Origin: Patescibacteria group bacterium
GTDB taxonomy: Bacteria > Patescibacteriota > Patescibacteriia > SG8-24 > DYFX01
Length of the DNA: 64,000 nucleotides
NCBI GenBank assembly: GCA_030583805.1
Contig: CP129476.1
Location: 902,657 to 966,656, forward strand
Direction of reading: 5' to 3'
Shown: one piece after another, positions 2,492 through 56,395 of the stretch
Position numbering within the stretch: the first letter of the stretch is position 1
Layout: each line of letters opens with the position of its first letter
Program-made: the position numbers and the translations under genes
Notes under the pieces: generated by a model
What the model was told of the DNA's origin: nothing
The model's input: the letters and a program-made list of their open reading frames with translations, nothing else
Database searches by the model: none

Positions 2492-5600
<3,109 letters not shown>

Positions 5601-5781: not shown

Positions 5782-5897
<116 letters not shown>

Positions 5898-5904
5898 TTT
5901 ATGT

Positions 5905-31000: not shown

Positions 31001-31424
31001 CAACGTCCGCCAGGTGCTCTCGAAGCTGGAGATCGAGGCAGAATGGACGTTTGAGGACTGGATGCTCGAGATCGTCGCCGAGGAAGTGAACGTCAAGAAA
31101 GCGACGTACGAAAAAGACGACGAATTCGAAGTCGAGCTCGATACGGAGCTCACTCCCGAACTCAAGCGCGAGGGCGCCGCCCGCGAGCTCACGCGCGCCG
31201 TGAACGCGCTCCGCAAGGAAGCGAAGCTCACGATTCAGGACCGCATCACGCTGCTTGTCGAAGGTTTGGACGGCTTCTGGAAAGAGGTCATGGACGCGCA
31301 CGGCGCGCCCGTGCTCGCCGACGTTAAAGCTGACGCGGTGAAAGAAAGTCTGGACGGCGCCCTCGCGACGGGGGAGGTCGAAGCGGACGGCCAGGAGCTC
31401 AAAATCGGCATCGCCAAGAACTGA
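28014..31424 (+). CDS. ileS: isoleucine--tRNA ligase (type 2) carrying an inserted histidine-phosphatase (PGM-family) domain
   Basis: HHVLARAFKD (HIGH-like), editing domain, WAISRDRYWGTP, KMSKS; insert FFMVRHGRA...IVSHGD between CECG and CDCG zinc-knuckle halves; -10 TATATT 8 nt before ATG. Confidence 0.95.
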   Translation: MAAPNFPQLEEELLKDWEEKQIFKKTLEKPAPKGDFVFFEGPPTANGKPGIHHVLARAFKDLIPRFKTMQGYRVDRKAGWDTHGLPVELEVEKQLGLKNKKDVEAYGVEKFNEKCRESVWKYLDEWVKMTKRMGYWVDLEHPYVTYKNEFIESVWNIVAEVEKKNLLYKGYKIVPYCARCGTALSSHEVAQGYKEVTETSVYVRFKVKDEANTYFLAWTTTPWTLPSNTALAVGADLDYVKVKKGGDFYFVAKARVSLMEDVEIVEEMKGSDLVGQQYEPLYSFLPLAKPAHWVVAGSFVSTTDGSGIVHMAPFGEDDMNIIKEHDFPVLMTVGLDGAFIPEITPWAGKFVKDVDAEIVKDLSDRGLLYKEEKYTHDYPFCWRCSTPLLYYPKDSWFIAMSKLQKELVANNEKINWEPAHIKEGRFGEWLRGIKDWAISRDRYWGTPLPIWECECGKTQAIGSLSEMNEKRFRKNRFFMVRHGRAMSNQNGYISCWPERPDLEVHLTPEGEASVRATAERMKEEGIDLIFASDLKRTMQTAQLLAEITGAELKFDPRLREINVGVFNGKSEEEYSKQFASLEEKMTKPVEGGESLEDVRARMVAAVLEYDRTHEGKKIAIVSHGDPLWVLDAAMSGEWSAGVLENFGARYPDTGSGREFTVPNWPFDHKGALDVHKPFIDAVTIACDCGKEMKRVPEVMDVWFDSGAMPFAQWHYPFENKEKIDGGTGYPADFISEAIDQTRGWFYTLLAVSTLLGREPAYKNVICLGHLLDAKGQKMSKSKGNVVNPWDMFAKYGADAVRFHLFTVNQPGEAKRFDEKEVDGVIKKLFLILWNVQSFWKMYAGEKAKAQSEAPKPAHTLDAWVLSELASVTEKVTTNLERFDVVTAGRAIADFANDLSTWYLRRSRDRFKNGTDEEKASAVATLGHALLTVSKLLAPFTPHVAEGLYREVGGEKESVHLDAWPEAGTIDENLLLQMKRVRQACSMGLEKRAKAGINVRQVLSKLEIEAEWTFEDWMLEIVAEEVNVKKATYEKDDEFEVELDTELTPELKREGAARELTRAVNALRKEAKLTIQDRITLLVEGLDGFWKEVMDAHGAPVLADVKADAVKESLDGALATGEVEADGQELKIGIAKN

Positions 31425-36349: not shown

Positions 36350-38212
36350 TTATTCTCTCACCACACCTTTACCGGCGGCCGACGCGTCACCCAGGAGATC
36401 GGTTCCGATAGCCGGAGCCGTTTTTAGTATCACCGTTCCGACGTCCTTGTCGAATCCTTCGAGCCTGTTGTCGCCGGTCAGGTCGATGATTTTTCCCACA
36501 TCCTCCGCTTCAGGCGTCAGCTCGACGTCGAAGGTGACGGTCACCGAATCCACGGAGGTCGGCATGCGGTTGAGGCGCCAGGTGACCTTGCGGCCGGTTT
36601 CGTCGAACGTCAGGCTTCCGGCTTCGACCAAACGATCCTCGCCGGTCCACTTCACGCCTTGCGGCAAGAGCGTGCTGGCCGTCAGATCCGTCAGTTCATG
36701 GAGCGAGTTTTGCACGACCCACGTGATGCGGTACACGGTCTTCTCTCCGGCAATGGGAGGAAGAGGGCCGGACCCGACCGGCGTTCCGTCCTCGGTGAAG
36801 TAACGGCCGAAGGCTTGGAAGGCGGTGTCGCTTTGCAGGCGGATGTCGAACGGCGCGGTGTCGACTTGGCGCGTTCCAGGGACGTTCCCGGCCTTGCCAA
36901 TCGCGGCGCTCGCTACGGCGTGGATCGCGTATACGGACGTTTCCACGTCAGCGAAGGGCTTGCGAATCAGTTGTACCGAGAAAGCGATCTCGCCTTTATC
37001 TCCCGGCTCAAGCAATGCGAGTGCCGGCAGTTCTTTTTTGGTCCATGTAAGCGTCGAGCCGACGCGCCTGACGGACAAGTCGTCCTTCAGCGAGACCCAG
37101 TCGAGAATCGTCCGGCCTACCGGCTCCGAGGGGAGCGAGGCGGAAATCGCCACGTCCTTCAACGAAACGTCGCTGGCGTTTTCGTACCGCACCGCGAAGT
37201 AGAGCGTATCGCCGAACGAGACGACGGGCGGCTTGTTGGAGCCGTTGACGATGAGTGCCAGATCAAGATTGCTCTTGAGCACGTTCGTCGTCGTGTCCGC
37301 TTTCGCGATTTCGATCAGCTTGGCGTTTTCGGCGAAGCCCATGCGGGCATGCATCGTCTTTCGGCCTCGCGATGTCGCGGAAAACGTTCCTTGCACCGCG
37401 ATCGTCCCTTTGCTCTTCGGCTCGATCGTCGGAAACGTCCATTGCAGGGCGACACCCTCGTCGTTTTTCGGCTTGGATGAAGCGAAGATAAAGCCCTCAA
37501 GCGGATCGATTTGCAGACGGACGTTCTCGAGCGGAAGCTCCGACAGGTTCTCGTATTCGAAGACGTACGCGATATCGTCGCCCGGCGTCATTTCAGGCGT
37601 GCCGGTGGCCGAGAGCGTGAGCGCCGCGTCCTTGACGACGACCGTATGCGAGGCGACTCTTTGGAATTCAGCGTTGAAATCCGCGGGCTTGTAGTCGAGC
37701 TCCGCTTGAAAGGTGAGCGCGGCTTCGAGCTCGCGTCTCACGTAACCGCGGACGCGCACCTCGCCCTCTCCTCCGGGAGCCACGGAGCCGATCGTCCACG
37801 TGCCGTCGTCGGCCGAAGGAAGGTCGGTGCCCGTCATCTGGAATCCGTCCGGAAGCCGCAAGACGATGCTGGCTCGCGCGAGCGGGATGCGTTCGCGATT
37901 TTGGTAGCGCACGACGACTTCCTCTTCGTTGCCGGATGTGAAACTGCCGTCCGTCTGCACGGTCAGGAGGACTTGTTCGCCGCTGAAACCCGACGTGCGC
38001 GCGAAGAGGAAGATGCCGGCCCAGGCCGCGCCGCCAAGCGCCAGAAGGCCGAAGGCGATGAAGATCAGGGCGGAACGCAAACGGCTTCTCGGCTTGCCGT
38101 CGAGGCGCGTGAAGTCGGGCATCGCCCCGTCGGAGTCGGCGTAAATCTGCTTCAGCTCTTGGCCAAGATCCTGCTTGATTTTTTTCGGCTTCTCCTCCAT
38201 AGAAGGCTTCAT
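36350..38212 (-). CDS. membrane-anchored protein with tandem DUF11/CARDB-like beta-sandwich repeats
   Basis: N-terminal TM (ALIFIAFGLLALGGAAWAGIFLF) then >=4 repeats of the Y.V.Y.N.S...L.NV pattern. Confidence 0.7.
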   Translation of the reverse strand: MKPSMEEKPKKIKQDLGQELKQIYADSDGAMPDFTRLDGKPRSRLRSALIFIAFGLLALGGAAWAGIFLFARTSGFSGEQVLLTVQTDGSFTSGNEEEVVVRYQNRERIPLARASIVLRLPDGFQMTGTDLPSADDGTWTIGSVAPGGEGEVRVRGYVRRELEAALTFQAELDYKPADFNAEFQRVASHTVVVKDAALTLSATGTPEMTPGDDIAYVFEYENLSELPLENVRLQIDPLEGFIFASSKPKNDEGVALQWTFPTIEPKSKGTIAVQGTFSATSRGRKTMHARMGFAENAKLIEIAKADTTTNVLKSNLDLALIVNGSNKPPVVSFGDTLYFAVRYENASDVSLKDVAISASLPSEPVGRTILDWVSLKDDLSVRRVGSTLTWTKKELPALALLEPGDKGEIAFSVQLIRKPFADVETSVYAIHAVASAAIGKAGNVPGTRQVDTAPFDIRLQSDTAFQAFGRYFTEDGTPVGSGPLPPIAGEKTVYRITWVVQNSLHELTDLTASTLLPQGVKWTGEDRLVEAGSLTFDETGRKVTWRLNRMPTSVDSVTVTFDVELTPEAEDVGKIIDLTGDNRLEGFDKDVGTVILKTAPAIGTDLLGDASAAGKGVVRE

Positions 38213-40656: not shown

Positions 40657-41783
40657 GACGGGAGGGAAGAAAGATAGGCTTGATAGGTGCGCTCCGCGCA
40701 GTCTTTCCACGTGTATTTTTCCGCTTGGGCACGTCCGCGCTCGGCCAGCGTCGCTCGAAGCGCGTTATCGGCGAAGGATCGCTGCATGGCTTCGGCCATC
40801 GCGTCAGGATTCTCGGGGTCGAAATAGGTCGCGGCGTCGCCGAGCACTTCCGGCAGGCAGGAAGAGTCGGAAGCGGCTACCGGCGTTCCGTAGCGCATCG
40901 CTTCGAGCGGCGGCAGGCCGAAGCCTTCGAGAAGCGAAGGGAACACGTAGACGCGGGCGTTGCGGTAGAGCTCAGCCAATTCGGACTCCGTCGCGTATCC
41001 GTAGAAGACGGCATCGTTCCGTTCAAGCAGTCCAAGCCGCTCGGCCTCTTTTTTCAAACGATCGTAGAAATAGTCCATTTTTCCGACCAAGACGAGCTGG
41101 GCCTCAAGCCCTCCGGCCCGCATACGCTTGAACACGTCGAGTAAACGCTCCAGGTTTTTGTGCGGATACGCGTTGCCGACGTAGAGAAAGTACGGTTTTA
41201 CGATCTTTTTGTTCGTCAGATCGATCTGCGCCCCGCCATTCGCTTGAACGGCGTCGGAAGCCTCGTAGGTGACGGTAATTTTTCGTTCAGGAACCCCGAG
41301 AGACTGCGTGATATCGCGTTTCGTGTACTCCGAGACGGCGATAATCCTTTTGGCGCGCCGCGCGGCGAGTCGGATCGTCAGGTGGTAGGCCGCGTATTTT
41401 AGGCGGTACATCACGGCGTTCAAGGTCGTGGCTCTCCGGGTCGGATACCGGAACAAGATCAGGTCATGGATCGTCACCACGAACGGGCACGGCGTGAGGA
41501 TCGGCACGTTGAAGTGCGGGAAATGCATGAGATCGATCCCTTCTCGCCGGATCAGGGGCGGGAAATGCACCTGTTCCGACAAGGAATACCAAGGAAAATC
41601 GGCCAAAACCTTGCGAAAGCGCGCTGAAGTCGGGTGGTAGAGATCGAAGTTCTCTTTTCGCAAAAACACCACAAATTCATGCTGGCTCTCGATCCGCTCC
41701 AGGTTCTCAATGAGCCTTTCGGTATAGCGGCCGAGTCCTTTGCCAACAGGTCCGAAAAACCGCGCATCAATACCGATTCTCAT
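40653..41783 (-). CDS. glycosyltransferase family 4 (GT-B)
   Basis: 376 aa; Glyco_trans_4 N-domain + C-terminal EX7E-type catalytic pattern (PSLLEGFGLPPLEAMRYGTPVAAS). Confidence 0.85.
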   Translation of the reverse strand: MRIGIDARFFGPVGKGLGRYTERLIENLERIESQHEFVVFLRKENFDLYHPTSARFRKVLADFPWYSLSEQVHFPPLIRREGIDLMHFPHFNVPILTPCPFVVTIHDLILFRYPTRRATTLNAVMYRLKYAAYHLTIRLAARRAKRIIAVSEYTKRDITQSLGVPERKITVTYEASDAVQANGGAQIDLTNKKIVKPYFLYVGNAYPHKNLERLLDVFKRMRAGGLEAQLVLVGKMDYFYDRLKKEAERLGLLERNDAVFYGYATESELAELYRNARVYVFPSLLEGFGLPPLEAMRYGTPVAASDSSCLPEVLGDAATYFDPENPDAMAEAMQRSFADNALRATLAERGRAQAEKYTWKDCAERTYQAYLSSLPS

Positions 41784-41856: not shown

Positions 41857-41885
41857 TTGATTTTACGGCCAAAAAATGATAAAAT
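41857..41885 (+). promoter_or_regulatory. promoter TTGATT-17-TAAAAT upstream of giant gene
   Basis: 17-nt spacer; in divergent intergenic region. Confidence 0.45.
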
Positions 41886-42049
41886 ACTTGTGTATCCACA
41901 GGGCTTAGCAGGGCTCTGCGGAAAAACAAAAACAAATGGGGGGGAGTCTTTACAATTTTTTGGCTCGAATTAGCGGTTTTGATACCGACCGCCAGGTTGA
42001 TTTCGTGCTCCCTGGCGGTTTTTCGTACAAAAAGACCCTTCTTAAGGCG

Positions 42050-45000
42050 ATGAAAGCCGTTTTCCCCGCGGTTTTCATCGCCTTTTTCCTCATTTCCCCT
42101 GCCTACGCCGCCAACTCCGTCCCCAAGGTCCTGAACTATCAAGCCCGGGTCACCGATTCGGGCGGCGTACCCGTCCCGAACGGGGCTCTGTCCGTCATTT
42201 TCCGCCTGTACGACGGCGACGGCACCTGTCTGTATTCGGCTCGCGGCTCCTGCGGCACCCCGACGGCCAAATCCGTCACGGTGACGAACGGCGTCTTCTC
42301 GACCCAGCTCGGCGAAGCGGGCGACAACGAGATTCCGGACGGTCTCTTCGACAACAACGTCGTGACTCTCGGCATTACGATCGGCGCGGACGCCGAAATG
42401 ACCCCTCGGAAGCGTCTCACCGCCGCCGCCTATGCCCTGAACGCCGACCGCCTCGATGATCTCGACGTCACCTCTTCCGGTTCCACGACCGCCTACATCC
42501 CGAGTACCACGGCCAACGGCAACCTCGTCATTACGGGCGATCCGCAGGGTACGGGCGTCGGCAACGGCTCCTTCTATATCAACCCCGCCAACGCCGCCGC
42601 TTCGGAGACCCTCTTCGGCATCGCCGACAACGGAGGCGTCCGCTTCCAGATCGACAAGGAAGGCGACATCACGCACACGGGCTCTCTCCTCGCCACCGCC
42701 GCCTCCTCGACGGCGCAGTTCGTGTTCCGGGGTGCGGCGAGCCAGACGAACGGCGTGTTCGGAATCCAAGACGCGAGTCAAAACCGCTTGCTCACTGTTT
42801 CCGCCACGTCGACCTTGATCGGCGCGGACGCTTCCGCATATCGCGTCGGTATCGGCATGGCGAGTCCGACTGCACTGCTGCACCTCGCGGACACGGCGAA
42901 CGCGCAATTGAAACTTCAGAGGATCGGCGCGTCGGCACAGGCTGGCACGCTCAATTTTGGCAACCAGGGCAGTCTCATCGCCAACTCCCGCGCTGCGATC
43001 AACAACTACGTCTTGCGCAACGACGGCGCGCTCCATTTGATTCGCAACCTCATTTTCCAGAGCGTGGATTGGGAACTTGAGGCCAACGGCACGGGCGCGC
43101 TGCTTGAAGTCGGCGAGGAAGGTATTTCTCTCTGGACGGCGCCGTCTTCCACCGCGGGCACGCAGAACCTCGCCATTCTCTTCATGGCGCGCGACGACGG
43201 AGATATTGCTATCCCCGCGAACGTCGGCATCGGCATCGCGTACAGCGACCCGACGGTCAGCGTTCCTTTGTATGTACAAGGTACGACGTCGGAAATCATG
43301 AAGTCGATCCGCAATTCGGCGCTGACGAACGTCGCGACGACGGGTTTGCGTGTCGTGCAAAACTCTTCGAACTCGAGTCTTGCCGACGGCTTCGGCATGG
43401 TCATTCAGTACGCGATCGACAGTCCTTCGATCGCGGAAACGGTCCTGGCTGAAGTCGGCGGTATCCGCTACGGCGCGGACAACTCCGGTGCCATCGTTTT
43501 CAATACATATAACGCCGGTGCTGGCACCGAAAAGGCCCGCATTCTTCCGAACGGCTATTTCGGCATCGGTAACGCCGCGCCCGCGAACAAGCTCACTGTC
43601 GGTTCCGCCACCAGCACGTTCGAAGTCGACTTCAGCGGTAACGTGCGCAAGATCAACAATGTCATCTACAGCTGGCCGGCCTCGCAGGGCGGCGCCTCGA
43701 CGGTGCTGCAAAACGACGGCAACGGCGTTTTGACGTGGGCGTCTTCGAGCGGCGGCAACCTGAACCAGGCATATCTCGCTGCCACCGGTTCTCCGGAAAT
43801 TTCGCTCACGCCCTCGGTCGGCGCGGTTACGATCGCCGACACGCTCTCGGGCACCGGCAACATCTTCGAGATTACGGACCGCACGACGGCGGCCGGAGAC
43901 TTCTCGCGCCGCTATTTCACCGTCAGCTCGACGTCGACCAACCTGGCGTACAACAACCTGTCGAGCGGCACCGCGTTCGGCGTCTCTTCAAGCGCGGCCT
44001 TCTCGGGCAACCTGATGGCGCTCGCCGGCACCGCGAACTTTACGGGAGATCTTCTTGAACTGACGTCGGCGGCTTCGTTCGGCCGCGGCATTTTCATCGA
44101 CTACGACGCCGGCAACAACGACGGCACGATCATCGAAATCATGTCGGACGAAACGAGCGTTTCCGGCACCTCGGCGGACACGCAGAAATTTGCGGTCTCG
44201 GCCGCCGGTTCCATTACCGGCGACGGCAACCTTACGATCGGCGGCTCGACCAACCTGGGCGATTCGACGGGCACCGACACGCTCGTATTCACGAGCGGCG
44301 CCACCACGGGTTCGCTCGCGCTCTTCCAGACCAGCGGCTCGGTCAGCACCGGCAACGTCATTCGCGTCACTTCTACGAACAACACGATGACGACGGGCCG
44401 CATGCTCACGACGGAGCACACGGCGCCGAACGTGGTATCGGCCTTCACCGGATTCATGAACAACTTCGAGGCGACCCGCACCTTCAGCAGCGCCGGCACC
44501 TACGGCGAATCCGGCAGCATCGCCCGCGTCCAGCGGAGTCTGACGAGCAACGGCGGGAGCGTGACGGTCAACGCCTCCGGAGACGTCATGCTGATCAGCT
44601 CGGACGGCACGCAGACGTCCGGCACCTTGAACATCACGGGCAGCGTCCTTGAATTGGCCCAGAACTACGCATCCGCCTCCGGCGCGGCCTTGAATATCGT
44701 GAATGCCGGCACGGGCGCCGACATCGCGCTTCCGGCCACGGCGATCATTGATATCGGCAACGGCGGCACCTTGATCTTCCGCGACGGCACGAACACGCTT
44801 TGTACGATCACGGACGCGGGAACGACGGGAGATTTCAGCTGCTCGGGCACCATTTCAGGCGCGAGCGGTGGCAACCTGAACCAGGCGTATCTCGCGGCCA
44901 CGGGTTCTCCGGAACTCTCGATCACGCCGTCCGTCGGCGCTCTCACGATCGGCGACACCTTCGGCGGCACCGGCAACATCTTCGAGGTGCAGGACCGCAC

Positions 45001-48000
45001 CAACGCCGCCGGCGACTACAGCATCCGCATGTTCAGCGTGAGCGCGACCGGTACGCGGATCGCTTCCGACGTCTTCTTCGCCAGCGGCGGCGGCAACGAC
45101 GCCTCGGTCGCCTTCATCGATGATCCGGACACCGGTTTCGCGAACGGCGGCACCAACCGTATCGACTTCATCACGGCCGGACAGACGAAGATCATTCTGG
45201 AAGACAACTTCACCCTGTTCGGCTCGACCGAACTCATCGTGAACGGCGGCGTCATCGACTTCGGCGCCTCTTCCGGCTTCCTGGCTGCGACGCCGACAAT
45301 CTTGGAAGTCGGCGGCGCGGCCACGACGCTCATCATGGGCGCGAACGGCCCCGGCACGACCCGGATCCGCAACAGCCTGGTCGTGAACGGCGATCCGCAG
45401 GGTACCGGCCTCTCGAACGGCACGGTCTACGTGAACCCCTCGGCCCCGACCGGCAACGAGACGCTCTTCTCGATCGCCAACAACGGCTCCTTGCGCTTCA
45501 AGCTCGATGCCGAAGGCGACATCGACGTCACGGGCAGCATGCTTGCCGTCTCCGCTTCGACGACGAGCCAGTTCCAGCTCCGCGGCTTTGCCGCCCAGTC
45601 CAACAACATCTTCGAAGTCCAGGATTCTTTCACGAACCGCCTCTTCTCGGTTTCTTCGACCTCGACGCGCTACATCAACCGCCTCATCGCCCCGGCGCAT
45701 GCCGTGAACCAGGGTCTCCAGATCCCGACCTTCGCCGGCGTCCCGACGGCGGTGACGGGAACGGCAGAGGGCGATCTGGTCTGGGATTCTACGGGCAACA
45801 GCTTGTATGCGTATAACGGCGCCGCGTTCGCGGCGATCGGCGGTACGACGAACTTGAACCAAGCGTATCTCGTTGCTACGGGCACTGCGGAAATCTCCCT
45901 CACGCCGTCCGTCGGCGCCCTCACGATCGCCGACACGCTCTCGGGCACCGGCAACATCTTCGAGATCCAGAACCGCACGACGGCAGCTGGCGATTACAGC
46001 ACGCGTTACATGACGGTGAGTTCAACCGGAACGACCGTCACGAACCTGACCATCACCGGCATTTGTACGGGTTGCGGCGGCGCGTCTCCGAGCTTGAACC
46101 AGGCGTATCTCGCCGCCACCGGCTCGCCGGAAATCTCCATCACGCCGTCCGTCGGCGCCCTCACGATCGCCGATACCTTCTCGGGCACCGGCAACATCTT
46201 TGAGATTACGAACCGCACTAATCCGGCGGGTGATTACAGTGCGCGCTACTTCACCGTCAGCGGAACGGCAACCTCGATCGCCACCAAAGCCTACTTCTCG
46301 CGCGGTGGAGGCAATGATGCCTCGATCGCCTTCATCGGCGATGAAGATACCGGTCTTTCGAACGGAAACGACAATCGTTTGGACGTGGTGATCGGCGGCG
46401 CGACGACGATGATTATCGACGATAACGTCACGGTTGTTGGTTCTTCTGAATTTACGGTCAACGGAGGCGTCATCAACATCGGCGCATCTTTCGGCCAGCT
46501 CGCATCTTCGCCGACCACGCTTGAACTTGCGCATGCCGCCACCACCCTCACACTCGGCGCGACCACGGGCACGACAACCACTCGCAACAGCCTGGTCGTC
46601 GGCTCCTCCTCGTCGACGCACGTCTTGAACACGACCGGCGCTCGTATCACCGGCAACCTCACGCCGTCCGCCGACAACACTTACAACCTTGGCGACTACA
46701 ATCGTCGCTGGAAGGATTTGTGGCTCTCGGGCGGCTCGGCCCACATCGCCTATAACACGAGCGGCACGACTTCGCTCGACATTGGCTGGGTCAATAGGTT
46801 TGCCCACCCGACCAACAGCCTCCGCGCGCGACTATTCTCGTCCGGACAACCGATCCAGATCACGCCGAACAATGGAGAGACGGCAGGTTTGTATATCGAC
46901 ACGGCTGGCAGGGTGGGTATGGGCACGACGCTGCCCACCATCAAGCTGCACGTCGAAGACAACGTCGCGGACTTCGTCGCGTACTTCGACAACAACGGCA
47001 GCGCCGACACGCGCGTAGGCATCATTATCGAGGGATGTGCCGACAACAACCCGACGTCGAGCTGCGAACTGATCAGCTTCCGCGACGGCGATGGCACCGG
47101 CATCGGCCGCGTTCGCGGAAACGCTTCTGGCGGCGTTACCTACGCCACGACAGGCGCCGGCGACTTCGGCGAACGTCTGCCCGGAGATCCGTGGATCCTG
47201 ACCGACGGTTATCTCGTGGCTGTGGGCGAAGCTGGTGTGGCATTGAAGGCGACGAATAGCGCGAATCTGATCGGTGTCGCGAACGACAACATCGTCTTCG
47301 CCGGCAATGACGACCTCGATCCGGCGACCAGCGTTCCGGTGGCCATGCTCGGTCTTGCCGACGCGTACGTAAACGTTGAAAACGGCGTGATCAAGGCGGG
47401 CGACCTTATTGCGCTCTCTTCGACGCCCGGCGTCGGCATGAAGGCAACCAAGCCCGGCATGGTCGTGGGACGCGCGATGCAGGACTGGAGCGGCCCGGGT
47501 CTCGGCAAAATCCAGGTGCACGTATCTCCGCAGTGGCACTCCGGCCTCTCGATCACGAACGACGGCGCGTCCTCGATCTTCGCCGACGACTTCGCCTTCA
47601 AGCCGCTCGACATCGCCTCGGCGACCGGCACCGCCTTCTCCTCGTATGCACTGAAATTCGGCGGTTCCGTGTGGGACAGCGCTTCGAACACCGCCGTCAC
47701 GCGCAACATCTCGATGCGCAACAATGTCAGTACTCCTGATATCTACCAACTTGAATTCAAGAATACGGTCGGCGGCACGCTCGCCTCGCTGAACCAGGCT
47801 GGCGACCTCGCCTTGGCGGGTTCCCTCACCGTGAACGGCGGCCTCGACTACGCCGAAACGTTCCCGGCGGCTCCGGACCTCGACGCCGGCGACATCGTCA
47901 TGGTCGACGCGGCGAATACCAACGGCTACGGCGTGAAGAAGTCCGACGCCGCCTACGAAAACACCCTCCTCGGCGTCATCTCGACCAAGCCCGGCTTCCT

Positions 48001-48892
48001 GACGGGCAAGAGCACGGCGGGTACCCAGCCCGTGGCCCTCGCCGGCCGCGTACCGGTCAAGGTCAACACCGAATCCGGCGAGATCAAGCCGGGCGACCCG
48101 ATCACTTCGTCCTCGACGCCTGGCGTCGGTATGAAGGCGGCGGAAGCCGGACGCGTCATCGGTATCGCGCTTGAAGGCTGGAACGGCAGCGGCACCGGCC
48201 GCATCACCGTCTTCGTGAACCCCTCGTGGTGGAACGGCCCGGCCGCGCTCGCGGGAGCGATCGCAGGTGGCACGTTGTCGACCAATGGCGAAACGCTGAT
48301 TGATCTCAAGAACTCCACGCTCGCGGGCGTCTCCGCCATCGTTTCGACCAGCGGTCTCTGGAGCGTGACTTCCGACGGCATCTTGGCCGCGCAGAAAGTC
48401 GAAGCCAAGAGCGTGCAGGCCGAAAACGTCGTGCTTGTTCAGTCTGAATCGGCGGCGAGCGTTTCCGAGGGCGTCGTGCCCGAAGGGTATAACGCGACGC
48501 TCGTGCGCAATCCCTCCATGACATCCAATGCCAAAGTCTTTGTCTCCTTCCTGGGAGATCCGGGCGGAGGCTATTGGATCGGAGAAAAGGGTGAAGGAGA
48601 CTTCACGCTGCACCTGGCCAGGCCGGCCACACAAGATTTGCCGTTCGAGTATTGGATCCTTGGCGTCGACGACCGCCGTCCCAGTCCCCCCACTGGGACG
48701 GACGAGTCGACGCCTCTCTCGGACGGATCACCTCCGATCGATCCGGAAACCACCGGATCGGCATCGGGCACGGAGGAGACGGAACCTACGCCGACCGGCG
48801 CGGATCCGGATCCGACGGAACCTATCGTGACGGAAACGAGCACGAGTACGGATCAGACGGAATCGAGCACGAGTACGGACGCGAGTCCGTAA
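42050..48892 (+). CDS. giant secreted repeat protein (2,281 aa) with phage tail-fibre-like motifs
   Basis: signal peptide MKAVFPAVFIAFFLISPAYA (alt. upstream ATG 41936); five ~75-aa NLNQAYLAATGSPEIS...GTGNIFEI..RT.AAGDYS repeats; GRVGMGTTLPTIKLHV tail-fibre motif; duplicated C-terminal domain (...SSTPGVGMKA...). Confidence 0.8.
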   Translation: MKAVFPAVFIAFFLISPAYAANSVPKVLNYQARVTDSGGVPVPNGALSVIFRLYDGDGTCLYSARGSCGTPTAKSVTVTNGVFSTQLGEAGDNEIPDGLFDNNVVTLGITIGADAEMTPRKRLTAAAYALNADRLDDLDVTSSGSTTAYIPSTTANGNLVITGDPQGTGVGNGSFYINPANAAASETLFGIADNGGVRFQIDKEGDITHTGSLLATAASSTAQFVFRGAASQTNGVFGIQDASQNRLLTVSATSTLIGADASAYRVGIGMASPTALLHLADTANAQLKLQRIGASAQAGTLNFGNQGSLIANSRAAINNYVLRNDGALHLIRNLIFQSVDWELEANGTGALLEVGEEGISLWTAPSSTAGTQNLAILFMARDDGDIAIPANVGIGIAYSDPTVSVPLYVQGTTSEIMKSIRNSALTNVATTGLRVVQNSSNSSLADGFGMVIQYAIDSPSIAETVLAEVGGIRYGADNSGAIVFNTYNAGAGTEKARILPNGYFGIGNAAPANKLTVGSATSTFEVDFSGNVRKINNVIYSWPASQGGASTVLQNDGNGVLTWASSSGGNLNQAYLAATGSPEISLTPSVGAVTIADTLSGTGNIFEITDRTTAAGDFSRRYFTVSSTSTNLAYNNLSSGTAFGVSSSAAFSGNLMALAGTANFTGDLLELTSAASFGRGIFIDYDAGNNDGTIIEIMSDETSVSGTSADTQKFAVSAAGSITGDGNLTIGGSTNLGDSTGTDTLVFTSGATTGSLALFQTSGSVSTGNVIRVTSTNNTMTTGRMLTTEHTAPNVVSAFTGFMNNFEATRTFSSAGTYGESGSIARVQRSLTSNGGSVTVNASGDVMLISSDGTQTSGTLNITGSVLELAQNYASASGAALNIVNAGTGADIALPATAIIDIGNGGTLIFRDGTNTLCTITDAGTTGDFSCSGTISGASGGNLNQAYLAATGSPELSITPSVGALTIGDTFGGTGNIFEVQDRTNAAGDYSIRMFSVSATGTRIASDVFFASGGGNDASVAFIDDPDTGFANGGTNRIDFITAGQTKIILEDNFTLFGSTELIVNGGVIDFGASSGFLAATPTILEVGGAATTLIMGANGPGTTRIRNSLVVNGDPQGTGLSNGTVYVNPSAPTGNETLFSIANNGSLRFKLDAEGDIDVTGSMLAVSASTTSQFQLRGFAAQSNNIFEVQDSFTNRLFSVSSTSTRYINRLIAPAHAVNQGLQIPTFAGVPTAVTGTAEGDLVWDSTGNSLYAYNGAAFAAIGGTTNLNQAYLVATGTAEISLTPSVGALTIADTLSGTGNIFEIQNRTTAAGDYSTRYMTVSSTGTTVTNLTITGICTGCGGASPSLNQAYLAATGSPEISITPSVGALTIADTFSGTGNIFEITNRTNPAGDYSARYFTVSGTATSIATKAYFSRGGGNDASIAFIGDEDTGLSNGNDNRLDVVIGGATTMIIDDNVTVVGSSEFTVNGGVINIGASFGQLASSPTTLELAHAATTLTLGATTGTTTTRNSLVVGSSSSTHVLNTTGARITGNLTPSADNTYNLGDYNRRWKDLWLSGGSAHIAYNTSGTTSLDIGWVNRFAHPTNSLRARLFSSGQPIQITPNNGETAGLYIDTAGRVGMGTTLPTIKLHVEDNVADFVAYFDNNGSADTRVGIIIEGCADNNPTSSCELISFRDGDGTGIGRVRGNASGGVTYATTGAGDFGERLPGDPWILTDGYLVAVGEAGVALKATNSANLIGVANDNIVFAGNDDLDPATSVPVAMLGLADAYVNVENGVIKAGDLIALSSTPGVGMKATKPGMVVGRAMQDWSGPGLGKIQVHVSPQWHSGLSITNDGASSIFADDFAFKPLDIASATGTAFSSYALKFGGSVWDSASNTAVTRNISMRNNVSTPDIYQLEFKNTVGGTLASLNQAGDLALAGSLTVNGGLDYAETFPAAPDLDAGDIVMVDAANTNGYGVKKSDAAYENTLLGVISTKPGFLTGKSTAGTQPVALAGRVPVKVNTESGEIKPGDPITSSSTPGVGMKAAEAGRVIGIALEGWNGSGTGRITVFVNPSWWNGPAALAGAIAGGTLSTNGETLIDLKNSTLAGVSAIVSTSGLWSVTSDGILAAQKVEAKSVQAENVVLVQSESAASVSEGVVPEGYNATLVRNPSMTSNAKVFVSFLGDPGGGYWIGEKGEGDFTLHLARPATQDLPFEYWILGVDDRRPSPPTGTDESTPLSDGSPPIDPETTGSASGTEETEPTPTGADPDPTEPIVTETSTSTDQTESSTSTDASP

Positions 48893-48931: not shown

Positions 48932-50089
48932 TTACGTACCGGCAATGATGTCGAATGCGCCTTCGGTTTTCTCGGCGCAGGCGCTCCAACGAAACAGCGT
49001 GGCGCGATCCCGTCCTCTTGCGACATACCGTTCCGCGAGCGAAGGGGAGTCGAGGATGGCGTCGATCGCGGCGGCGATTTCCGTCGGTCGATAGGGGTCT
49101 GTCAGGAGTCCGGCGGTCTCCATGATTTCGCTGAGAGCGCCGGCGTGCGAGGCGACGACGGGCAGTCCCGAGGCCATCGCTTCGAGCGGCGGCAGGCCGA
49201 AGCCTTCATAGAAAGAGGGGAAGGCCAAGAGCGACGCGAGGCGGTACAAGCATCGGCGATCGAGATCGTTCACGTACCCGAGCAATCGGATGTCATCGCG
49301 GTACGGGCTGCGCCGGATGGCTTGAAGAATCGCGGCGTTGTTCCAGCCGGACGGTCCTGCGAGCACCAAACCCAGTCCGGCATAGCGCGCCTGCGGGCGG
49401 AGCTGATGGTAGGCGTCGAGCAAGCCGAGATGGTTTTTCCGGGGTTCCAGCGCTCCGACGTGCAGAATGAAGCGCTCTGGCAATCGCCAGCGTTCGCGCG
49501 CTTGCCGCAGCGCGTCTTGGGGCGGCGTGTCGAAAAAATCCGAAGCGACGCCTTCATGGGTGACGACGATCTTTTCCGGCGGCAGCCGCCAACGGTCGAC
49601 AAGATCGCGTTTCGTCGTTTCGGAAACGGCGAGGACGACGTTCGCGCGTCGGGCGAGATTCCGCGGCGCGACGGCGCGATGCCACAAGCGCTGTTTCAGC
49701 GAAAAAAATTCCGGATACGTTTCAAACGTCAGATCGTGAATGGTGAGCGCCAGCGGCAGGGAAGGGGAGAGCGCGACAAAATGCGGATTCGGCATCCAGC
49801 AGAGCGTCGGCGGCTCGGAAGCGAAGCGTTCCAGGTGCGGCGTCTTAAAAAGACGCATCGACGCGTTGAGCAGCTTGTTCGGATAGCGCGTCAACGTATC
49901 GATTCCGGCGACGGGCGCGACAAGATCCGCCTTCGGCGGCAGCGCCGCATTGGCCCACGTTTCAATCGCATAGCGGCCGGATTCCTTGAGCGCCGCCGTC
50001 AATCTGCGCGCGTACTCGAAGACGCCTCCGCCATTGCGGTCCAACAGGGCTCTTCCGTCGATGAGGACGCGGCGCGATCGATTCGACAT
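48932..50089 (-). CDS. glycosyltransferase family 4
   Basis: GT4 C-terminal motif AFPSFYEGFGLPPLEAMASGLPVVAS. Confidence 0.85.
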   Translation of the reverse strand: MSNRSRRVLIDGRALLDRNGGGVFEYARRLTAALKESGRYAIETWANAALPPKADLVAPVAGIDTLTRYPNKLLNASMRLFKTPHLERFASEPPTLCWMPNPHFVALSPSLPLALTIHDLTFETYPEFFSLKQRLWHRAVAPRNLARRANVVLAVSETTKRDLVDRWRLPPEKIVVTHEGVASDFFDTPPQDALRQARERWRLPERFILHVGALEPRKNHLGLLDAYHQLRPQARYAGLGLVLAGPSGWNNAAILQAIRRSPYRDDIRLLGYVNDLDRRCLYRLASLLAFPSFYEGFGLPPLEAMASGLPVVASHAGALSEIMETAGLLTDPYRPTEIAAAIDAILDSPSLAERYVARGRDRATLFRWSACAEKTEGAFDIIAGT

Positions 50090-50151
50090 GGAACGCTTGT
50101 GTGATTGTTGGAAAGCCGTTAGGGTCTTTGTAGGCAGTTTTGGAGGCCGTC

Positions 50152-50805
50152 ATGACGAGCATGCGTCTCTGCTTCGCGTTTCTGGTGCTCCTGGTTCTTC
50201 CGTCCGCTTGCCTCAAGTCGGTGTGCCCGACGTGTCCGACCTGTCCGGTCGCAACAGCCGGCGAGGACTGCGGGCCGCCGCCGATCGCCGATCCCGACTG
50301 GACGATGCGGGACGATCGTCCGGATCTGCCTGAAGGCCTCGCGTGTCTCAAGGATCCGCTGGCCGTACCGGCCTCGTACCTCATCGTCAACGCGCCGTTC
50401 CGCGACCCCGAGCATTGTTGGACGCCCAACATGCACCGCGGAACCGACTTGCGCGCCAAGGCCGATACTCCGGTCGTGGCCAGCGCTGCGGGCGAAGTTG
50501 TCGACGTTCGGCAGCAGCACGGCGAAACGTGGTCCGTGGAAGTTCGCTTCGGCGACGGCTGGAGTTACCGTCCGGCGCATCTGCGCGAGATCGCGGTTGC
50601 GCTCGGAGACAAGGTCGAAGCTGGCGACGTGCTGGGCTGGTCCGGCGGCGAGAGGAAGCAGCCGGGATCAGGTCCGTACACCACCGGCCCGCACTTGCAC
50701 TTCGAACTCGTCTACCAAGGCGCGTACGTCGACGCCGAGAAATACTTCTGCCGTTCATACGCGCGCTCGACCGCCACGCGCACGTGTCTCAAAGTGTGCC
50801 AGTAG
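50152..50805 (+). CDS. secreted M23-family metallopeptidase (LytM-like)
   Basis: GGAGG SD; signal peptide; HRGTD...HLHFEL zinc motifs; CPTCPTCP Cys-Pro repeat after signal peptide. Confidence 0.8.
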   Translation: MTSMRLCFAFLVLLVLPSACLKSVCPTCPTCPVATAGEDCGPPPIADPDWTMRDDRPDLPEGLACLKDPLAVPASYLIVNAPFRDPEHCWTPNMHRGTDLRAKADTPVVASAAGEVVDVRQQHGETWSVEVRFGDGWSYRPAHLREIAVALGDKVEAGDVLGWSGGERKQPGSGPYTTGPHLHFELVYQGAYVDAEKYFCRSYARSTATRTCLKVCQ

Positions 50806-50837: not shown

Positions 50838-51455
50838 TTAGGCTGCGAGACGCTTCGGGCGCCAGGAGGCGTATGCGCACGCGAGGCCGATGAAGGCGCC
50901 GACGAACGCTCCGGCCAAGGCCGCTCGCGCCGGCGGAATGCGCGTTTCCGCGATAACCGGCTCGGAGGCGCTCACGATAAAGAGCGTTTCCTGTTCGGGA
51001 GAAAGGACGAGCGTCCGTGCGCGTTCAGAAACGTGGCGCGAAAGGCTCGCATACAACTTGGCGGCCGTTTCGGCATCGGACGCCGCATAGGCAACGACGA
51101 CGTTCTGGCTCGAATATTTTTTTCCTCGGAAAACGCGCCCGGAAATCGCCCTGATTTCGGAGTCGGTTCGCTGGATTCCGGCGTCGGCGAAGACTTCTTT
51201 GACGACGGAAGGCGTCGAGAGCCAGCTGATCATCGTGTCGGCGACGAGCTCCGAAGCGCGCAGGGCATAGTAGCCGTCGTACGAGTAATCGGACGTTTCC
51301 TGGCGCGCTTGCTGCGAGATCGTAAACGCGAATGAAACGTTGGTGCGCGGCGGCAAGGTTCCGGCGACGGCGGCGAAGAGCAGTGCGGCGGCCGCGGCGG
51401 AAGCGAGGACGGCGCGAACCGGATGCGAGAAGAATCCGACGAGGTGCGTTTTCAT
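50838..51455 (-). CDS. Wzz-like chain-length determinant-type protein (two terminal TM helices)
   Basis: TM near both ends with periplasmic middle; ATGA coupling to upstream GT4. Confidence 0.5.
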   Translation of the reverse strand: MKTHLVGFFSHPVRAVLASAAAAALLFAAVAGTLPPRTNVSFAFTISQQARQETSDYSYDGYYALRASELVADTMISWLSTPSVVKEVFADAGIQRTDSEIRAISGRVFRGKKYSSQNVVVAYAASDAETAAKLYASLSRHVSERARTLVLSPEQETLFIVSASEPVIAETRIPPARAALAGAFVGAFIGLACAYASWRPKRLAA

Positions 51456-52606
51456 GCGTGTGCGGTTTCGCGCGCGGTAACGCCGCGCTTTTCTTTTTGA
51501 ACGGCATGGGCCGTCTTGTGCGCTTTCCAGCTTTCCGAAACGAAGGAGGCGATACGGCGCTTGAAGACGCTGACGTCGAACGACTCGGCGTGCGCGCGGA
51601 TCGTGGCGGGGTCGTAACGCTCCGGGTTGAAGCGGATCACGGTTGCGGCAAGCTCCTCCCACTCCTGGTCTCCGAAAAACTCCCCGGTCACGCCCGGAAC
51701 GACGGTTTCAAGCGCGCCGCCGACGCCGTACGCGATGACGGGCCGTCCAGCCGCCATGGATTCGAGGGCCGTAATGCCGAAATCTTCTTCTTGCGGATGG
51801 ATGAACGCGATGGCGCCGCGATACAGCTCGGCCTTCTCGGCGTCGCTGACCTTGCCGACGAACTCGATGTTCGGGCGCGCGTGCTTCCGGTATTCCTTGG
51901 AGAGGGGACCGTCGCCGAAAATCTTGAGCGGCAGGCCGAGGCGGTTGAAGGCCTGGATGATGAGATCAAAGCGCTTATAGGAAACGAGGCGCCCGCCCGC
52001 CAAGAAGTACGTTCCGGGCGCGGTTGCGACGGAAAACTTTCCCGTTTCGACGGGAGGATAGATGATTTCGGAATCGCGGGCGTAATATTTTTTGATGCGG
52101 TCGGCGACCGTGCGCGAGTTGGCGATGAACCGGTCGACGCGGTCCGAGGACAAGCGGTCCCAGACGCGCAAGCGATTGAGGAGCATCGGCAAGAGCGCCT
52201 TCGTCAGGCGGTTCGCGTTCAACTCCTGCACGTAGCTGTGCGTGTCGCTCCACAAATAACGGGTCGGCGTGTGGCAATAGCAGACGTGCAACGTGTCCGG
52301 CTTCGTGATGATGCCTTTGGCGAAGGCGCTCGAGCTCGAAATCACGACGTCGAACTCGGAGAGATCGTGGCTCTCCGTCGCGGCCGGCATGAGCGGAAGG
52401 AACCACTGGTATTTTTTCAAAGCGAACGGAAGCTTTTGCAGGAACGACGTGCGGATGTCTTTGGAAGCGAATTCTTTGCTGACGCGCTTCGGATCGTAGA
52501 GCAGCGTGTAGGTCGGCGCGTTCGGAAAAATTTCCTGCAAGGCCAGCAAGACTTTTTCGGCTCCTCCGTCCTGCACCAGATGATCGTGGACGAGCGCGAC
52601 TTTCAT
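51452..52606 (-). CDS. glycosyltransferase family 4
   Basis: GT4 motif IHPQEEDFGITALESMAAGRPVIAYG. Confidence 0.85.
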   Translation of the reverse strand: MKVALVHDHLVQDGGAEKVLLALQEIFPNAPTYTLLYDPKRVSKEFASKDIRTSFLQKLPFALKKYQWFLPLMPAATESHDLSEFDVVISSSSAFAKGIITKPDTLHVCYCHTPTRYLWSDTHSYVQELNANRLTKALLPMLLNRLRVWDRLSSDRVDRFIANSRTVADRIKKYYARDSEIIYPPVETGKFSVATAPGTYFLAGGRLVSYKRFDLIIQAFNRLGLPLKIFGDGPLSKEYRKHARPNIEFVGKVSDAEKAELYRGAIAFIHPQEEDFGITALESMAAGRPVIAYGVGGALETVVPGVTGEFFGDQEWEELAATVIRFNPERYDPATIRAHAESFDVSVFKRRIASFVSESWKAHKTAHAVQKEKRGVTARETAHA

Positions 52607-52607
52607 A

Positions 52608-54032
52608 TCAGTACGCCCCTTTTTTCGCGAAGACCACAAACGGCGTCTTTGCCAGGATCGCCAGGTCCATGAGGGGCGTCCAGTTTTCGATGTAGAACGT
52701 GTCGAGGCGGATCTCGTCGTCGAAAGCGAGGTCGGAGCGGCCGGAGACCTGCGCCAAGCCGGTGATGCCCGGGCGCACCATGAGGACGCGGCGGTGGTGG
52801 CGCTGATATTTTTCGACTTCGCGCGTTTGGTGGGGGCGCGGTCCGATCAAGCTCATGTCGCCCTTGAGGACGTTGAAAAATTGCGGCAGCTCGTCGATCG
52901 AGAAGCGGCGGATGAAGCGGCCGACCTTCGTGACGCGCGGGTCGTCCTTGATCTTATAGACCGGGCCGTTTTTCATGCTGCGCTCGGCGATGAGCTTCTG
53001 CTCAAGCTCGAGGGCGGCGCGTTGGTCGGCGAATTGCTCGCCGATCGAGACGTCGGCGCGCATGGAGCGGAACTTGTAGGCGCGGAACTTGCGGCCTTGG
53101 AGGCCGACGCGTTCGTTGCGGAAGATGATCGGTCCGCGCGATTCGAGCGCCACGGCGATGGCCGCGAGCAGCATGATCGGCGAGGTAAGGATGATCAGGA
53201 GCACGGAGCCGATGACGTCGAAGACGCGCTTGTAGACGCGGCCCCATCCTTCGAGGCGCGTGCGCTTCACTTCAATCACGGGGATGCCGGCGATCGTCGT
53301 CGACAAGAGCGCGGCGTGCGCGGCCAAGGTGTCGGCGGCGTAGCGGAAGGTAAGGTGCCGGTCCTCCGCGAACTCGATCACGGCGCGCATGGCCTCCTTG
53401 CTGGTTTCAGGATCGGTTACGAAAATTTCGTCGACGTCGTCGGCGTCGCACAGCGCCGAAGCCGCGCGCGCCGCTTCCGCGTCCCATCGGGCGAAGCGCG
53501 CGATGATGCGGTAGCCGCCCGCGGGGTTCTTGGCGAACTGCTCGGTGATCGCCGCCGTGGCGCGATCTTCGCCGCCGACCACGATGACATGGCGCGCGCC
53601 GATGCCGCGCTTCAAGAGTTGGCGGTTCACGAGACGCACGAGCAAGCGCATGAAAATGACGTAGGCAATCGACAAGAGCCAGGCCGCCAAGACGACGAAT
53701 CGCGACGTGAAGAGCTCGCGCTGGAAGAAAATCAAAATGATGAGCCCCATCACGCCGAGCGTGCAGGCCGAGACGACTTTGACGGCTTCTTCCAGAATGC
53801 GGCGCGGGCGCTCGATCGCGTAGAGTCCGGTCAGCGCGAAAATCACCAAATACGCCAGAGCGATGGCTGCGGCGGCTTTGAAGAAATCGGGGTAGGGGAG
53901 CAGCGAGATGGCCGGACGGAGTTCGGCGAACGTCTCGAAGCGCAGACGGTGGGCGGTGAGAGCGGCTAGGAGCAGCGCCACGTAGTCCAAGGGCAGGAGG
54001 ATGACAGTGAAGGTCAGCTGGTTTCTGCGCAT
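52608..54032 (-). CDS. polyprenyl-phosphate hexose-1-phosphate transferase (WbaP/WcaJ-like 'bacterial sugar transferase')
   Basis: multi-TM N-term; C-terminal SMRADVSIGE...SIDELPQFFNVLKGDMSLIGPRP signature. Confidence 0.85.
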   Translation of the reverse strand: MRRNQLTFTVILLPLDYVALLLAALTAHRLRFETFAELRPAISLLPYPDFFKAAAAIALAYLVIFALTGLYAIERPRRILEEAVKVVSACTLGVMGLIILIFFQRELFTSRFVVLAAWLLSIAYVIFMRLLVRLVNRQLLKRGIGARHVIVVGGEDRATAAITEQFAKNPAGGYRIIARFARWDAEAARAASALCDADDVDEIFVTDPETSKEAMRAVIEFAEDRHLTFRYAADTLAAHAALLSTTIAGIPVIEVKRTRLEGWGRVYKRVFDVIGSVLLIILTSPIMLLAAIAVALESRGPIIFRNERVGLQGRKFRAYKFRSMRADVSIGEQFADQRAALELEQKLIAERSMKNGPVYKIKDDPRVTKVGRFIRRFSIDELPQFFNVLKGDMSLIGPRPHQTREVEKYQRHHRRVLMVRPGITGLAQVSGRSDLAFDDEIRLDTFYIENWTPLMDLAILAKTPFVVFAKKGAY

Positions 54033-55879: not shown

Positions 55880-56395
55880 GTTTCAAGCGAGCCTGTAAGC
55901 CGAATTCTGTCTTCCGACGTTGCCGCCGGAATGACGGTCATCTCTCTCGTCCCAACGTTGCCATTGGGATCAAGCAAGCTACCTAATTTGCTCTTGCACC
56001 GGATCGGTGTTTACCCCGGAGCCGATCACTCGACTGCCGCGTGGGCTCTTACCCCACGATTTCAACCTTACCTCACTCCCGAAGGAGGTCTCTCCATTGA
56101 AGGATGAGGCGGTATGTTTCTGTTGCTCCCCGTGCAAGCCTCGCGGCTCTCATGGGGCATCCTCCGAAGAGGACCCGCACGCCCGACGAATCGGGCTTCC
56201 CTGGGCTTGGCGTATCCGCACCATCTCTCGTTACCCGAGACATGATGTGATCCGTTGTTCCCGGTTGCCGTTAGCAACGATCTCTGAATCATGGATTGCT
56301 CCATGAAACGGTGTTCGGACTTTCCTCGATCCGCCTATTTTGGGCGGGTCGCGACCATCCGGCTCCCTTAAAACAGCTCCCAGGTACGATGTACC
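55880..56395 (-). ncRNA. rnpB: RNase P RNA (bacterial type A-like, ~500 nt)
   Basis: minus-strand GAGGAAAGTCCGAAC (CR-I/P4), GGTAAGAGCCCACG, GGTAAACACCGATCCGGTGCAAGAGCAAAT, ACAGAATTCGGCTTACAGG (CR-V/P4 3' strand). Confidence 0.75.

Follow-up and report, generated by a model that had tools for sequence, protein, structure and literature searches.

The window analysed here is a stretch of 64,000 nucleotides from a Patescibacteria bacterium (contig CP129476.1, positions 902,657 to 966,656 of the forward strand). On its plus strand lies a very large gene, at 42050-48892, which we call the fibre gene. In our preferred reading, its product would be a secreted surface fibre built like the mosaic adhesive trimers (MATs) of Bdellovibrio and ending in tandem chaperone domains of the kind found in the phi29 appendage protein gp12. 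The open reading frame (ORF) is single and uninterrupted over 41936-48892; read from 42050, it gives 2,280 amino acids (aa) and a stop codon. An earlier reading of the DNA letters, made without database searches (the sequence-only reading), had described one 6.8-kb ORF and had named an interruption of this ORF, or an assembly artefact in its repeats, as what would refute it. The frame is intact, and the assemblies of related genomes, which are independent, also have intact orthologues. The exact protein is present in NCBI as WKZ28868.1 (QY323_05060), a hypothetical protein from a 1.17-Mb Patescibacteria metagenome-assembled genome (MAG), with a contig of 1,167,441 bp. The G+C content at third codon positions is 0.80, in line with the neighbouring genes; the region has 62% G+C, and the long antisense ORFs found there are the usual by-product of such a composition. 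Gly, Thr, Ala and Ser together make up 45% of the residues. The true start is either 41936 or 42050, and the first of these may be the correct one. The 38-codon stretch upstream of 42050, opened by an ATG at 41936, is conserved in two related loci (L001 and L002) and, in part, in P0006, which is a distant homologue. A promoter-like site at 41857-41885 had a score not above chance. The features of the gene are as follows.

41936-42049, plus strand: possible N-terminal extension of 38 aa (MGGSLYNFLARISGF...KKTLLKA), in frame and without stops ahead of the annotated start
42050-42109, plus strand: plausible signal peptide, aa 1-20, MKAVFPAVFIAFFLISPAYA, cleavage A-Y-A|A (then ANS), boundary at 42110 (read from the sequence)
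42110-42475, plus strand: MAT_N-like beta-sandwich followed by a short helix, aa 21-142, with an invariant ...EMTPRKR... (NF053851, AlphaFold2)
42503-42871, plus strand: unit B copy 1, aa 152-274 (self-BLAST)
42845-43612, plus strand: shaft region with three capping-loop-like motifs, VGIGMASPTALLHL at aa 266, VGIGIAYSDPTVSVPLYV at aa 392 and FGIGNAAPANKLTV at aa 504 (regular-expression search)
43757-43972, plus strand: unit A copy 1, aa 570-641, NLNQAYLAATGSPEISLTPSVGA... (hidden Markov model (HMM) of the four copies, E 3.6e-45)
43973-44839, plus strand: unique Gly/Ser/Thr/Asn-rich stretch, aa 642-930 (composition)
44873-45349, plus strand: unit A copy 2 and unit C copy 1, aa 942-1100 (self-comparison, HMM)
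45356-45730, plus strand: unit B copy 2, aa 1103-1227 (self-comparison)
45851-46567, plus strand: unit A copies 3 and 4 (aa 1268-1339 and 1348-1419) and unit C copy 2 (aa 1420-1506) (self-comparison, regular-expression search, HMM)
46637-47161, plus strand: putative pre-cleavage tip region, aa 1530-1704, with NTYNLGDYNRRWKDLW and the fourth motif IDTAGRVGMGTTLPTIKLHVED (nt 46913-46966) (PDB sequence matches)
47162-47551, plus strand: G2-type intramolecular chaperone copy 1, aa 1705-1834, beginning G|DFGE (A1 profile, hmmsearch E 6.5e-35)
47552-47845, plus strand: beta-rich linker between the chaperone copies, aa 1835-1932 (AlphaFold2)
47846-48238, plus strand: G2-type intramolecular chaperone copy 2, aa 1933-2063, beginning L|DYAE, the predicted autocleavage site
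48239-48661, plus strand: linker and small C-terminal beta-sandwich (aa 2134-2204) (AlphaFold2)
48671-48889, plus strand: Thr/Pro/Ser/Asp/Glu-rich tail, aa 2208-2280, probably disordered (T17 P13 S12 D8 E8 of 73 residues)

Scans with the whole protein (Pfam, PHROGs, PDB sequences) were uninformative, and signals came only from segments and from family profiles. Self-comparison aligned aa 1702-1832 with aa 1930-2063 at 40-51% identity, which bears out the tandem duplication described from the letters. When 42 homologous C-terminal segments were aligned (A1), the domain proved to open with a D-x-A-E that is nearly invariant. When compared with PDB sequences, the A1 profile matched phi29 gp12 (6qz9_A, residues 675-743, E 1.2e-6) and also 3gqh_A, the crystallised released fragment, whose initial DFAE was aligned exactly on D-x-A-E; the third match was the "chaperon domain D4" of the tailspike Dpo31. 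The Pfam family PF11962 (Peptidase_G2, IMC autoproteolytic cleavage domain) was matched by 10 of the 42 members, with a best E-value of 7.1e-9. In the fibre protein itself, both D1933-Y-A-E1936 (DYAE) and D1705-F-G-E1708 (DFGE) align with the DFAE that opens 3gqh_A, and the mature gp12* is known to end at residue 691 (PMC6542822). Over 81 domain instances from 61 homologues, the D was found in 74, the A in 74 and the E in 77, and 20 of these proteins have two copies of the domain.

The fold agrees with the profile. Modelled with AlphaFold2 (AF2), aa 1900-2240 reached a predicted local distance difference test score (pLDDT) of 82, and more than 90 inside the chaperone domain. The top Foldseek match of this model was the pre-mature gp12 (3suc), and the next ones were beta-tulip phage capsid decoration proteins and the C-termini of Klebsiella phage depolymerases. 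The last part of the linker between the two copies was modelled as beta strands, with the pLDDT going from about 80 to about 60 on nearing the cleavage motif. Beyond the second copy, the pLDDT was low for aa 2067-2083 and about 95 for aa 2134-2204, a small beta-sandwich that is conserved in about a third to half of the homologues and for which no specific relative was identified. The acidic tail had a pLDDT below 60 where modelled, and the Thr/Ser/Glu/Pro-rich end reported earlier is indeed found in the composition of the last 73 aa. The motif and hydrophobicity check of the C-terminus found no LPXTG motif and no membrane segment; anchoring of this end by sortase or in the membrane was rejected, as LPXTG is absent and the C-terminus is not hydrophobic.

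The sequence-only reading had called a motif of the protein typical of phage tail fibres and peptidase S74 proteins. No match to PF13884 (S74) was obtained with the whole protein or with nine segments, at E-values up to 5, and the fibre protein contains no SDxxxK motif; an S74 chaperone was rejected on both counts, and fold and profile point to the gp12-type G2 domain instead. The structural comparison proposed for the C-terminal modules gave a divided answer: the phage tailspike chaperone fold was found, and S74 was not. According to the family profile and the model, the duplicated domain is of the phi29 gp12/Peptidase_G2 type. Given this identity rather than S74, it would, by analogy with gp12, probably be a pro-domain that is cut off and not the functional tip.

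At the other end of the protein, the sole hydrophobic segment is the N-terminal MKAVFPAVFIAFFLISPAYA, and homologues have an equivalent segment. The hydrophobic stretch and its A-x-A site fit a Sec signal peptide, a plausible assignment already made from the letters. In a scan by segments, aa 14-96 matched the NCBIfam model NF053851 (Bdello_MAT_N) with an E-value of 1.3e-8 and 34.9 bits. Because this score lies under the curated Bdellovibrio-subfamily cut-off of 60, the N-domain is to be placed, from its sequence, at the level of the MAT superfamily and not of the Bdellovibrio subfamily. The same model was matched by 37 of 44 aligned homologous N-termini (alignment A2; best 8.6e-11). The AF2 model of aa 1-165 had a pLDDT of 83, with more than 90 over aa 30-120, and shows a beta-sandwich (aa 28-123) with a helix after it; the Ig-like region proposed earlier can stand as a loose description of this fold. 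The comparison of this model with PDB folds gave no significant match, only generic beta-sandwiches. The MAT N-domain is likewise described as having no structural relative in the PDB and as presumably located at the cell surface, and it directly follows the signal peptide in all 21 MATs (PMC10769870).

Between the two ends, a regular-expression search found the tail-fibre-like motif VG(I/M)G..P...L.V four times, at aa 266, 392, 504 and 1622. In the MAT structures this motif is the capping loop of a trimeric beta-helix, common to S74-type phage fibres and MyRF, with the published consensus V-G-G/N-pi-x-x-P-x-x-x-L (PMC10769870); the motif is one residue longer here. The two best matches of aa 1500-1705 among PDB sequences were MAT fibres, 8ond_A (Bd2133, E 0.0011) and 8ojn_C (Bd3182, E 0.0033). 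These E-values are modest; aa 1609-1687 align to both proteins on the motif IDTaGrVGmGTtlPTikLHVe. The putative tip region (aa 1530-1704) also gave a weak PHROG tail-fibre match. The phage tail-fibre-type motif that had been picked out from the letters is thus real and present in four copies.

The predicted shaft is internally duplicated. Unit A, of 72 aa, occurs in four full copies that start at aa 570, 942, 1268 and 1348 (nt 43757, 44873, 45851 and 46091); they were found by self-comparison, by a regular-expression search and with an HMM built from the four copies. Two partial look-alikes lie within unit B, at aa 245-261 and aa 1185-1211. Unit B itself relates aa 152-274 to aa 1103-1227 (49-53% identity, E 9e-35, self-BLAST), and a larger duplication relates aa 934-1125 to aa 1337-1529 (about 60% identity, self-comparison). 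Five copies of unit A had been counted at first, and they had been called near-identical and a collapse or expansion hazard in assembly. Neither the count nor the description was upheld: the four full copies agree with one another at 62-72% of protein and 70-75% of DNA positions, and the longest exact direct DNA repeat within the gene is 44 nt. The hazard is small because of this divergence. With intact orthologues in independent assemblies as well, the idea of near-identical repeats or of an assembly artefact was rejected. The unique stretch at aa 642-930 had no match in Pfam, PHROG or NCBIfam and could be aligned in only a few of the homologues.

We collected 66 homologues of 1,266-3,727 aa, the named ones coming from Patescibacteria, Uhrbacteria or Magasanikbacteria. 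They have in common the N-terminal ~150 aa and the C-terminal region, and the middle differs; in some of them it contains LVIVD/beta-propeller, LamG-like, neurotoxin-binding-like or lectin-like modules. Three homologues (P0024, P0052 and P0061) have S74 in place of G2. At the orthologous loci the fibres measure 2,044, 2,280 (the window), 2,865 and 3,478 aa, and their ends align at 52-81% identity. The closest orthologue, of 2,044 aa, is alignable over most of its length; for those of 2,865 and 3,478 aa, most of the middle is unalignable. The length polymorphism that had been suggested as a check is therefore found at one and the same locus, from 2,044 to 3,478 aa. One related MAG (L002 and L004, contig JBAZZB010000002.1, 320 kb) has two fibre genes, P0002 of 2,044 aa and P0004 of 1,676 aa (partial), with N-domains 87% and 81% identical to that of the window fibre. 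As this one contig has two such genes, the copy number of the family varies between relatives. In the window, a profile search found no paralogue of the fibre. No template-like repeat of a diversity-generating retroelement was found anywhere in the window either, and on this basis the gene was rejected as a target of such an element.

The family is far larger than these relatives. A search of 1.84 billion metagenomic clusters formed at 50% identity gave 72,871 representatives of its N-domain at E <= 1e-3, and the domain is also present in MAGs labelled Omnitrophica, WOR-1, Elusimicrobiales and Gammaproteobacteria. A single-protein scan for related loci returned 12, including MAGs labelled Gammaproteobacteria and Elusimicrobiales. 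Among 85 further independent long representatives closest to the N-domain, a G2-like domain was detected in 60 and two or more copies in 29. As judged from these sequences, the fibre protein is a typical member of a populous family. Experimental characterisation of the N-domain family was found for Bdellovibrio only, and the literature searched contained no published description of such fibres in Patescibacteria.

The fibre gene is surrounded by genes of the cell envelope. The neighbours were assigned with Pfam as follows.

36350-38212, minus strand: DUF11 protein, 620 aa
38209-40710, minus strand: DUF4012 protein, 833 aa
40653-41783, minus strand: GT4 glycosyltransferase, upstream of the fibre gene
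48932-50089, minus strand: GT4 glycosyltransferase, downstream of the fibre gene
50140-50805, plus strand: M23 peptidase
51452-52639, minus strand: second downstream GT4 glycosyltransferase
52608-54032, minus strand: Bac_transf priming sugar transferase

The glycosyltransferase surroundings that the sequence-only reading had pointed out are confirmed, with GT4 genes on either side of the fibre ORF. The order RuvA-FemAB-x-DUF11-DUF4012-GT4-fibre is kept in three related genomes (L001, L002 and L003), and RuvA, FemAB, DUF11, DUF4012 and GT4 are 61-95% identical across these relatives, the upstream neighbours DUF11, DUF4012 and GT4 being at 61-82% protein identity. RuvA and FemAB were seen in the syntenic loci; in the window they were recognised by homology. 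The downstream envelope-glycan block (GT4, M23, GT4 and Bac_transf) is kept in L001 and not in L002. In each of the four genomes examined, the GT4-fibre pair is directly preceded by the DUF11 and DUF4012 genes, which may be linked to the fibre in function, for instance through anchoring or glycan synthesis. The two flanking GT4 genes share 98 nt at 71% identity in their catalytic regions (40870-40967 and 49149-49246), and they are probably paralogues, going by this similarity. The neighbourhood and the Ser/Thr richness make the fibre a candidate for glycosylation.

Other features of the window lie away from this locus. The isoleucyl-tRNA synthetase (IleRS) gene at 28014-31424 (plus strand; 1,136 aa) encodes a histidine-phosphatase-fold domain (Pfam His_Phos_1, aa 478-636), which also matches the phosphoserine phosphatase 4ij5. 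The insertion lies between aa 8-467, which align to solved IleRS through the editing domain, and the remainder from about aa 680; the 90%-identity cluster of this protein has 10 members, most of about 1,136 aa. A 23S rRNA match at 2487-5606 (plus strand) measures 3,120 nt for a model of 2,925 positions, so that insertions are probable, and it is followed by a 5S rRNA at 5781-5899 (plus strand). The whole window gave no 16S rRNA match, and minus-strand protein-coding ORFs take up the 2.4 kb preceding the 23S gene; for these two reasons the rRNA genes appear to be unlinked. The RNase P RNA (bacterial class A) at 55880-56370 (minus strand) has 491 nt for a model of 367 positions, which suggests expansion segments.

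Altogether, we propose that the gene encodes a Sec-exported, cell-anchored, probably homotrimeric, self-chaperoning and self-cleaving surface fibre or adhesin of the MAT type, and we give this reading a probability of about 0.55, its trimerisation, cleavage and adhesion being argued from the related systems. The signal peptide, as read from the sequence, would direct the unfolded chain across the membrane via Sec. The beta-sandwich at aa 21-142, a homologue of the MAT N-domain by profile match, would form the cell-proximal base, in keeping with the position proposed for the MAT N-domain by its authors (PMC10769870). The predicted shaft comes next, about 1,550 aa, beta-rich and internally duplicated, with four capping-loop motifs of the MAT/S74 type. 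By analogy with gp12, the chaperones would trimerise first and put the three chains in register, and the shaft, its register set by the C-terminal domains, would fold from C to N outside the cell without cytoplasmic chaperones. The chaperones would cut themselves just before the Asp of D-x-A-E, at L1932|D1933 and possibly also at G1704|D1705. The mature fibre would then have about 1,680-1,910 aa, with the region directly upstream of the cut as its distal tip, and a length of the order of 70 nm if scaled from the Bd2133 tip, which measures 150 A per 370 aa (PMC10769870). Such a fibre would mediate attachment, whether to a surface or to a partner or host cell, and the mosaic middle, swapped between related genomes, may alter its length and specificity. 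The surface fibre or adhesin of a host-attached bacterium that had been suggested from the letters is in this sense retained, through the MAT_N match, the motif, the chaperone fold and the patescibacterial origin, less its S74 part.

Several points count against this proposal. The function of the family is deduced from sequence and from AF2 models (aa 1-165 and aa 1900-2240), both of which are monomers. The fibre's own scores are sub-threshold, for MAT_N (34.9 against 60) as well as for PF11962 (E 0.024, 14.5 bits, cut-off 25), and for this reason both assignments depend on fold and on profiles built at family level. In chaperone copy 1, a Gly (DFGE) stands where the Ala is nearly invariant, and this copy may be inactive. 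Cutting at both sites would leave the tandem arrangement and the conserved terminal beta-sandwich without explanation. Patescibacteria are thought to have a single membrane and an envelope unlike that of Bdellovibrio, so the N-domain may have another partner here. ATP is not available outside the cell, and Xiang et al. in 2009 are said to have found that release of the gp12 chaperone needs it.

In another reading of the same fibre, the G2-like domains would stay uncleaved, as structural or adhesive beta-tulip knobs, and the full 2,280 aa would be at work, terminal beta-sandwich and acidic tail included. The fold is, after gp12, also found in many capsid decoration and cement proteins that do not cleave, the motif of copy 1 departs from the consensus, and cleavage would discard a well-folded beta-sandwich that a third to half of the homologues possess; moreover, the P22 tailspike retains its auto-chaperone domain (PMC3357383). 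We nevertheless consider retention unlikely, because one would hardly expect a D-x-A-E to be nearly invariant over 81 domain instances, and precisely where gp12 is cleaved, unless it had a catalytic role, and because the best matches in both sequence and fold are to the cleaving gp12 domain and not to the decoration proteins. The solved G2-type chaperones raise another question, as they sit on depolymerising tailspikes (phi29 gp12, Dpo31 and the C-termini of K1 lyase/depolymerase). Part of the shaft, for example the repetitive, Gly/Ser/Thr/Asn-rich stretch at aa 642-930, could be a catalytic beta-helix that degrades the surface polysaccharide or cell wall of a partner, in the manner of phi29 gp12 and of the Klebsiella phage depolymerases with this chaperone, so that the protein would not be a pure adhesin; an M23 peptidase gene lies nearby. 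No segment matched a lyase, hydrolase or pectate-lyase-like family in Pfam, NCBIfam or PHROG, and an enzyme of this kind seems improbable to us.

The genomic setting bears on two further explanations. The gene lies inside a conserved envelope-glycan locus (three GT4 genes, Bac_transf, DUF4012 and DUF11), it is single in the window, and its product is very rich in Ser, Thr, Gly and Ala, all of which would suit an S-layer-like or wall-associated component made together with the glycan genes and having no role in cell recognition. Yet the set of domains is that of recognition fibres of phages and Bdellovibrio, homologues have lectin-like, LamG and beta-propeller modules, and the exchange of the middle part among close relatives is more easily reconciled with diversifying recognition than with a lattice protein; we see little chance for a purely structural role. 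The phage-type chaperone and the weak PHROG tail-fibre matches could be taken as signs of a prophage or tailocin tail-fibre gene rather than a cellular surface protein. Such an origin is hardly credible here and was rejected: no phage genes were found among the neighbours examined (36-54 kb), and the flanks are housekeeping and envelope genes (RuvA, FemAB, the GT4 genes, DUF4012 and IleRS) in synteny across four genomes. A Sec signal peptide and a MAT-type N-domain open the protein, and tblastn against a phage collection of 50,697 records gave one weak match only.

If the MAT-type fibre is the correct explanation, it provides a concrete and biochemically testable candidate for host attachment in Patescibacteria. 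How these ultrasmall bacteria find and hold their hosts is described as largely unknown, except for the type IV pili of Saccharibacteria (PMC12206443). Another branch of Patescibacteria would thus encode fibres from parts that Bdellovibrio and phages use for prey recognition, with genes that occupy a conserved locus and exchange their middle between relatives. We speculate, as a broader proposal that is doubtful as it stands, that many Patescibacteria (Uhrbacteria- and Magasanikbacteria-like) use phage-derived, self-chaperoning trimeric fibres as their main organelle of host recognition, and that the tandem G2 domains are a two-step maturation device, which also releases a folded C-terminal fragment with its own function. 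If so, the fast-evolving fibres of Patescibacteria would play the part that receptor-binding proteins play in phages and MATs in Bdellovibrio, and the tandem device, not described before, would belong in the window's lineage to a gene at a fixed chromosomal locus.

The comparison with known systems places the fibre between several of them. With the Peptidase_S74 chaperones (K1F endosialidase, T5 pb1 and MyRF) it has in common the upstream capping-loop motif and, functionally, a predicted C-terminal chaperone that would trimerise and cleave itself on a triple-beta-helix fibre; the fold and the catalytic residues are different, and there is no S74 domain. The auto-chaperone of the phi29 pre-neck appendage gp12 (MEROPS/Pfam Peptidase_G2, PF11962; PDB 3gqh and 3suc) is closer at this end. 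In gp12 the cut occurs before D692 and the released fragment starts with DFAE, of which the Asp and the Glu are kept in the motifs of the fibre, although the similarity between the two sequences is visible only with the family profile. Moreover, gp12 is assembled in the cytoplasm, has 854 aa and one chaperone copy, and is attached to the virion by an N-terminal coiled coil, whereas the Patescibacteria fibre is predicted to be secreted and anchored to the cell, and has two chaperone copies and 220 more residues downstream.

The likeness in overall plan is to the MAT fibres of Bdellovibrio bacteriovorus, for example Bd2133 and Bd3182 (Caulton et al. 2024, PMC10769870). MATs are intertwined homotrimers on the cell surface that bind epitopes of partner cells, as is proposed for the Patescibacteria fibre. 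In both cases the signal peptide leads into a beta-rich N-domain of about 130 aa, homologous between the two, the shaft has the same capping-loop motif, for which MATs are the best PDB sequence matches, the C-terminal end is an intramolecular chaperone of phage type, and evolution is mosaic, by module swapping, in an organism that depends on contact with other cells. The Patescibacteria fibre differs in its size (2,280 aa, compared with about 1,000), in an extra beta-sandwich and acidic tail, and in its host, a bacterium with a different envelope. MATs end in either an S74 chaperone or an adhesive tip domain; here that trait is replaced by a chaperone of the G2 (phi29 gp12) type, present twice in tandem. 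The examples in Table S3 of the MAT paper include no member from Patescibacteria and no G2-type ending (PMC10769870). The fibre would widen the MAT architecture in three respects, by bringing in a monoderm-type lineage, a chaperone of the G2 type and a tandem arrangement of chaperones.

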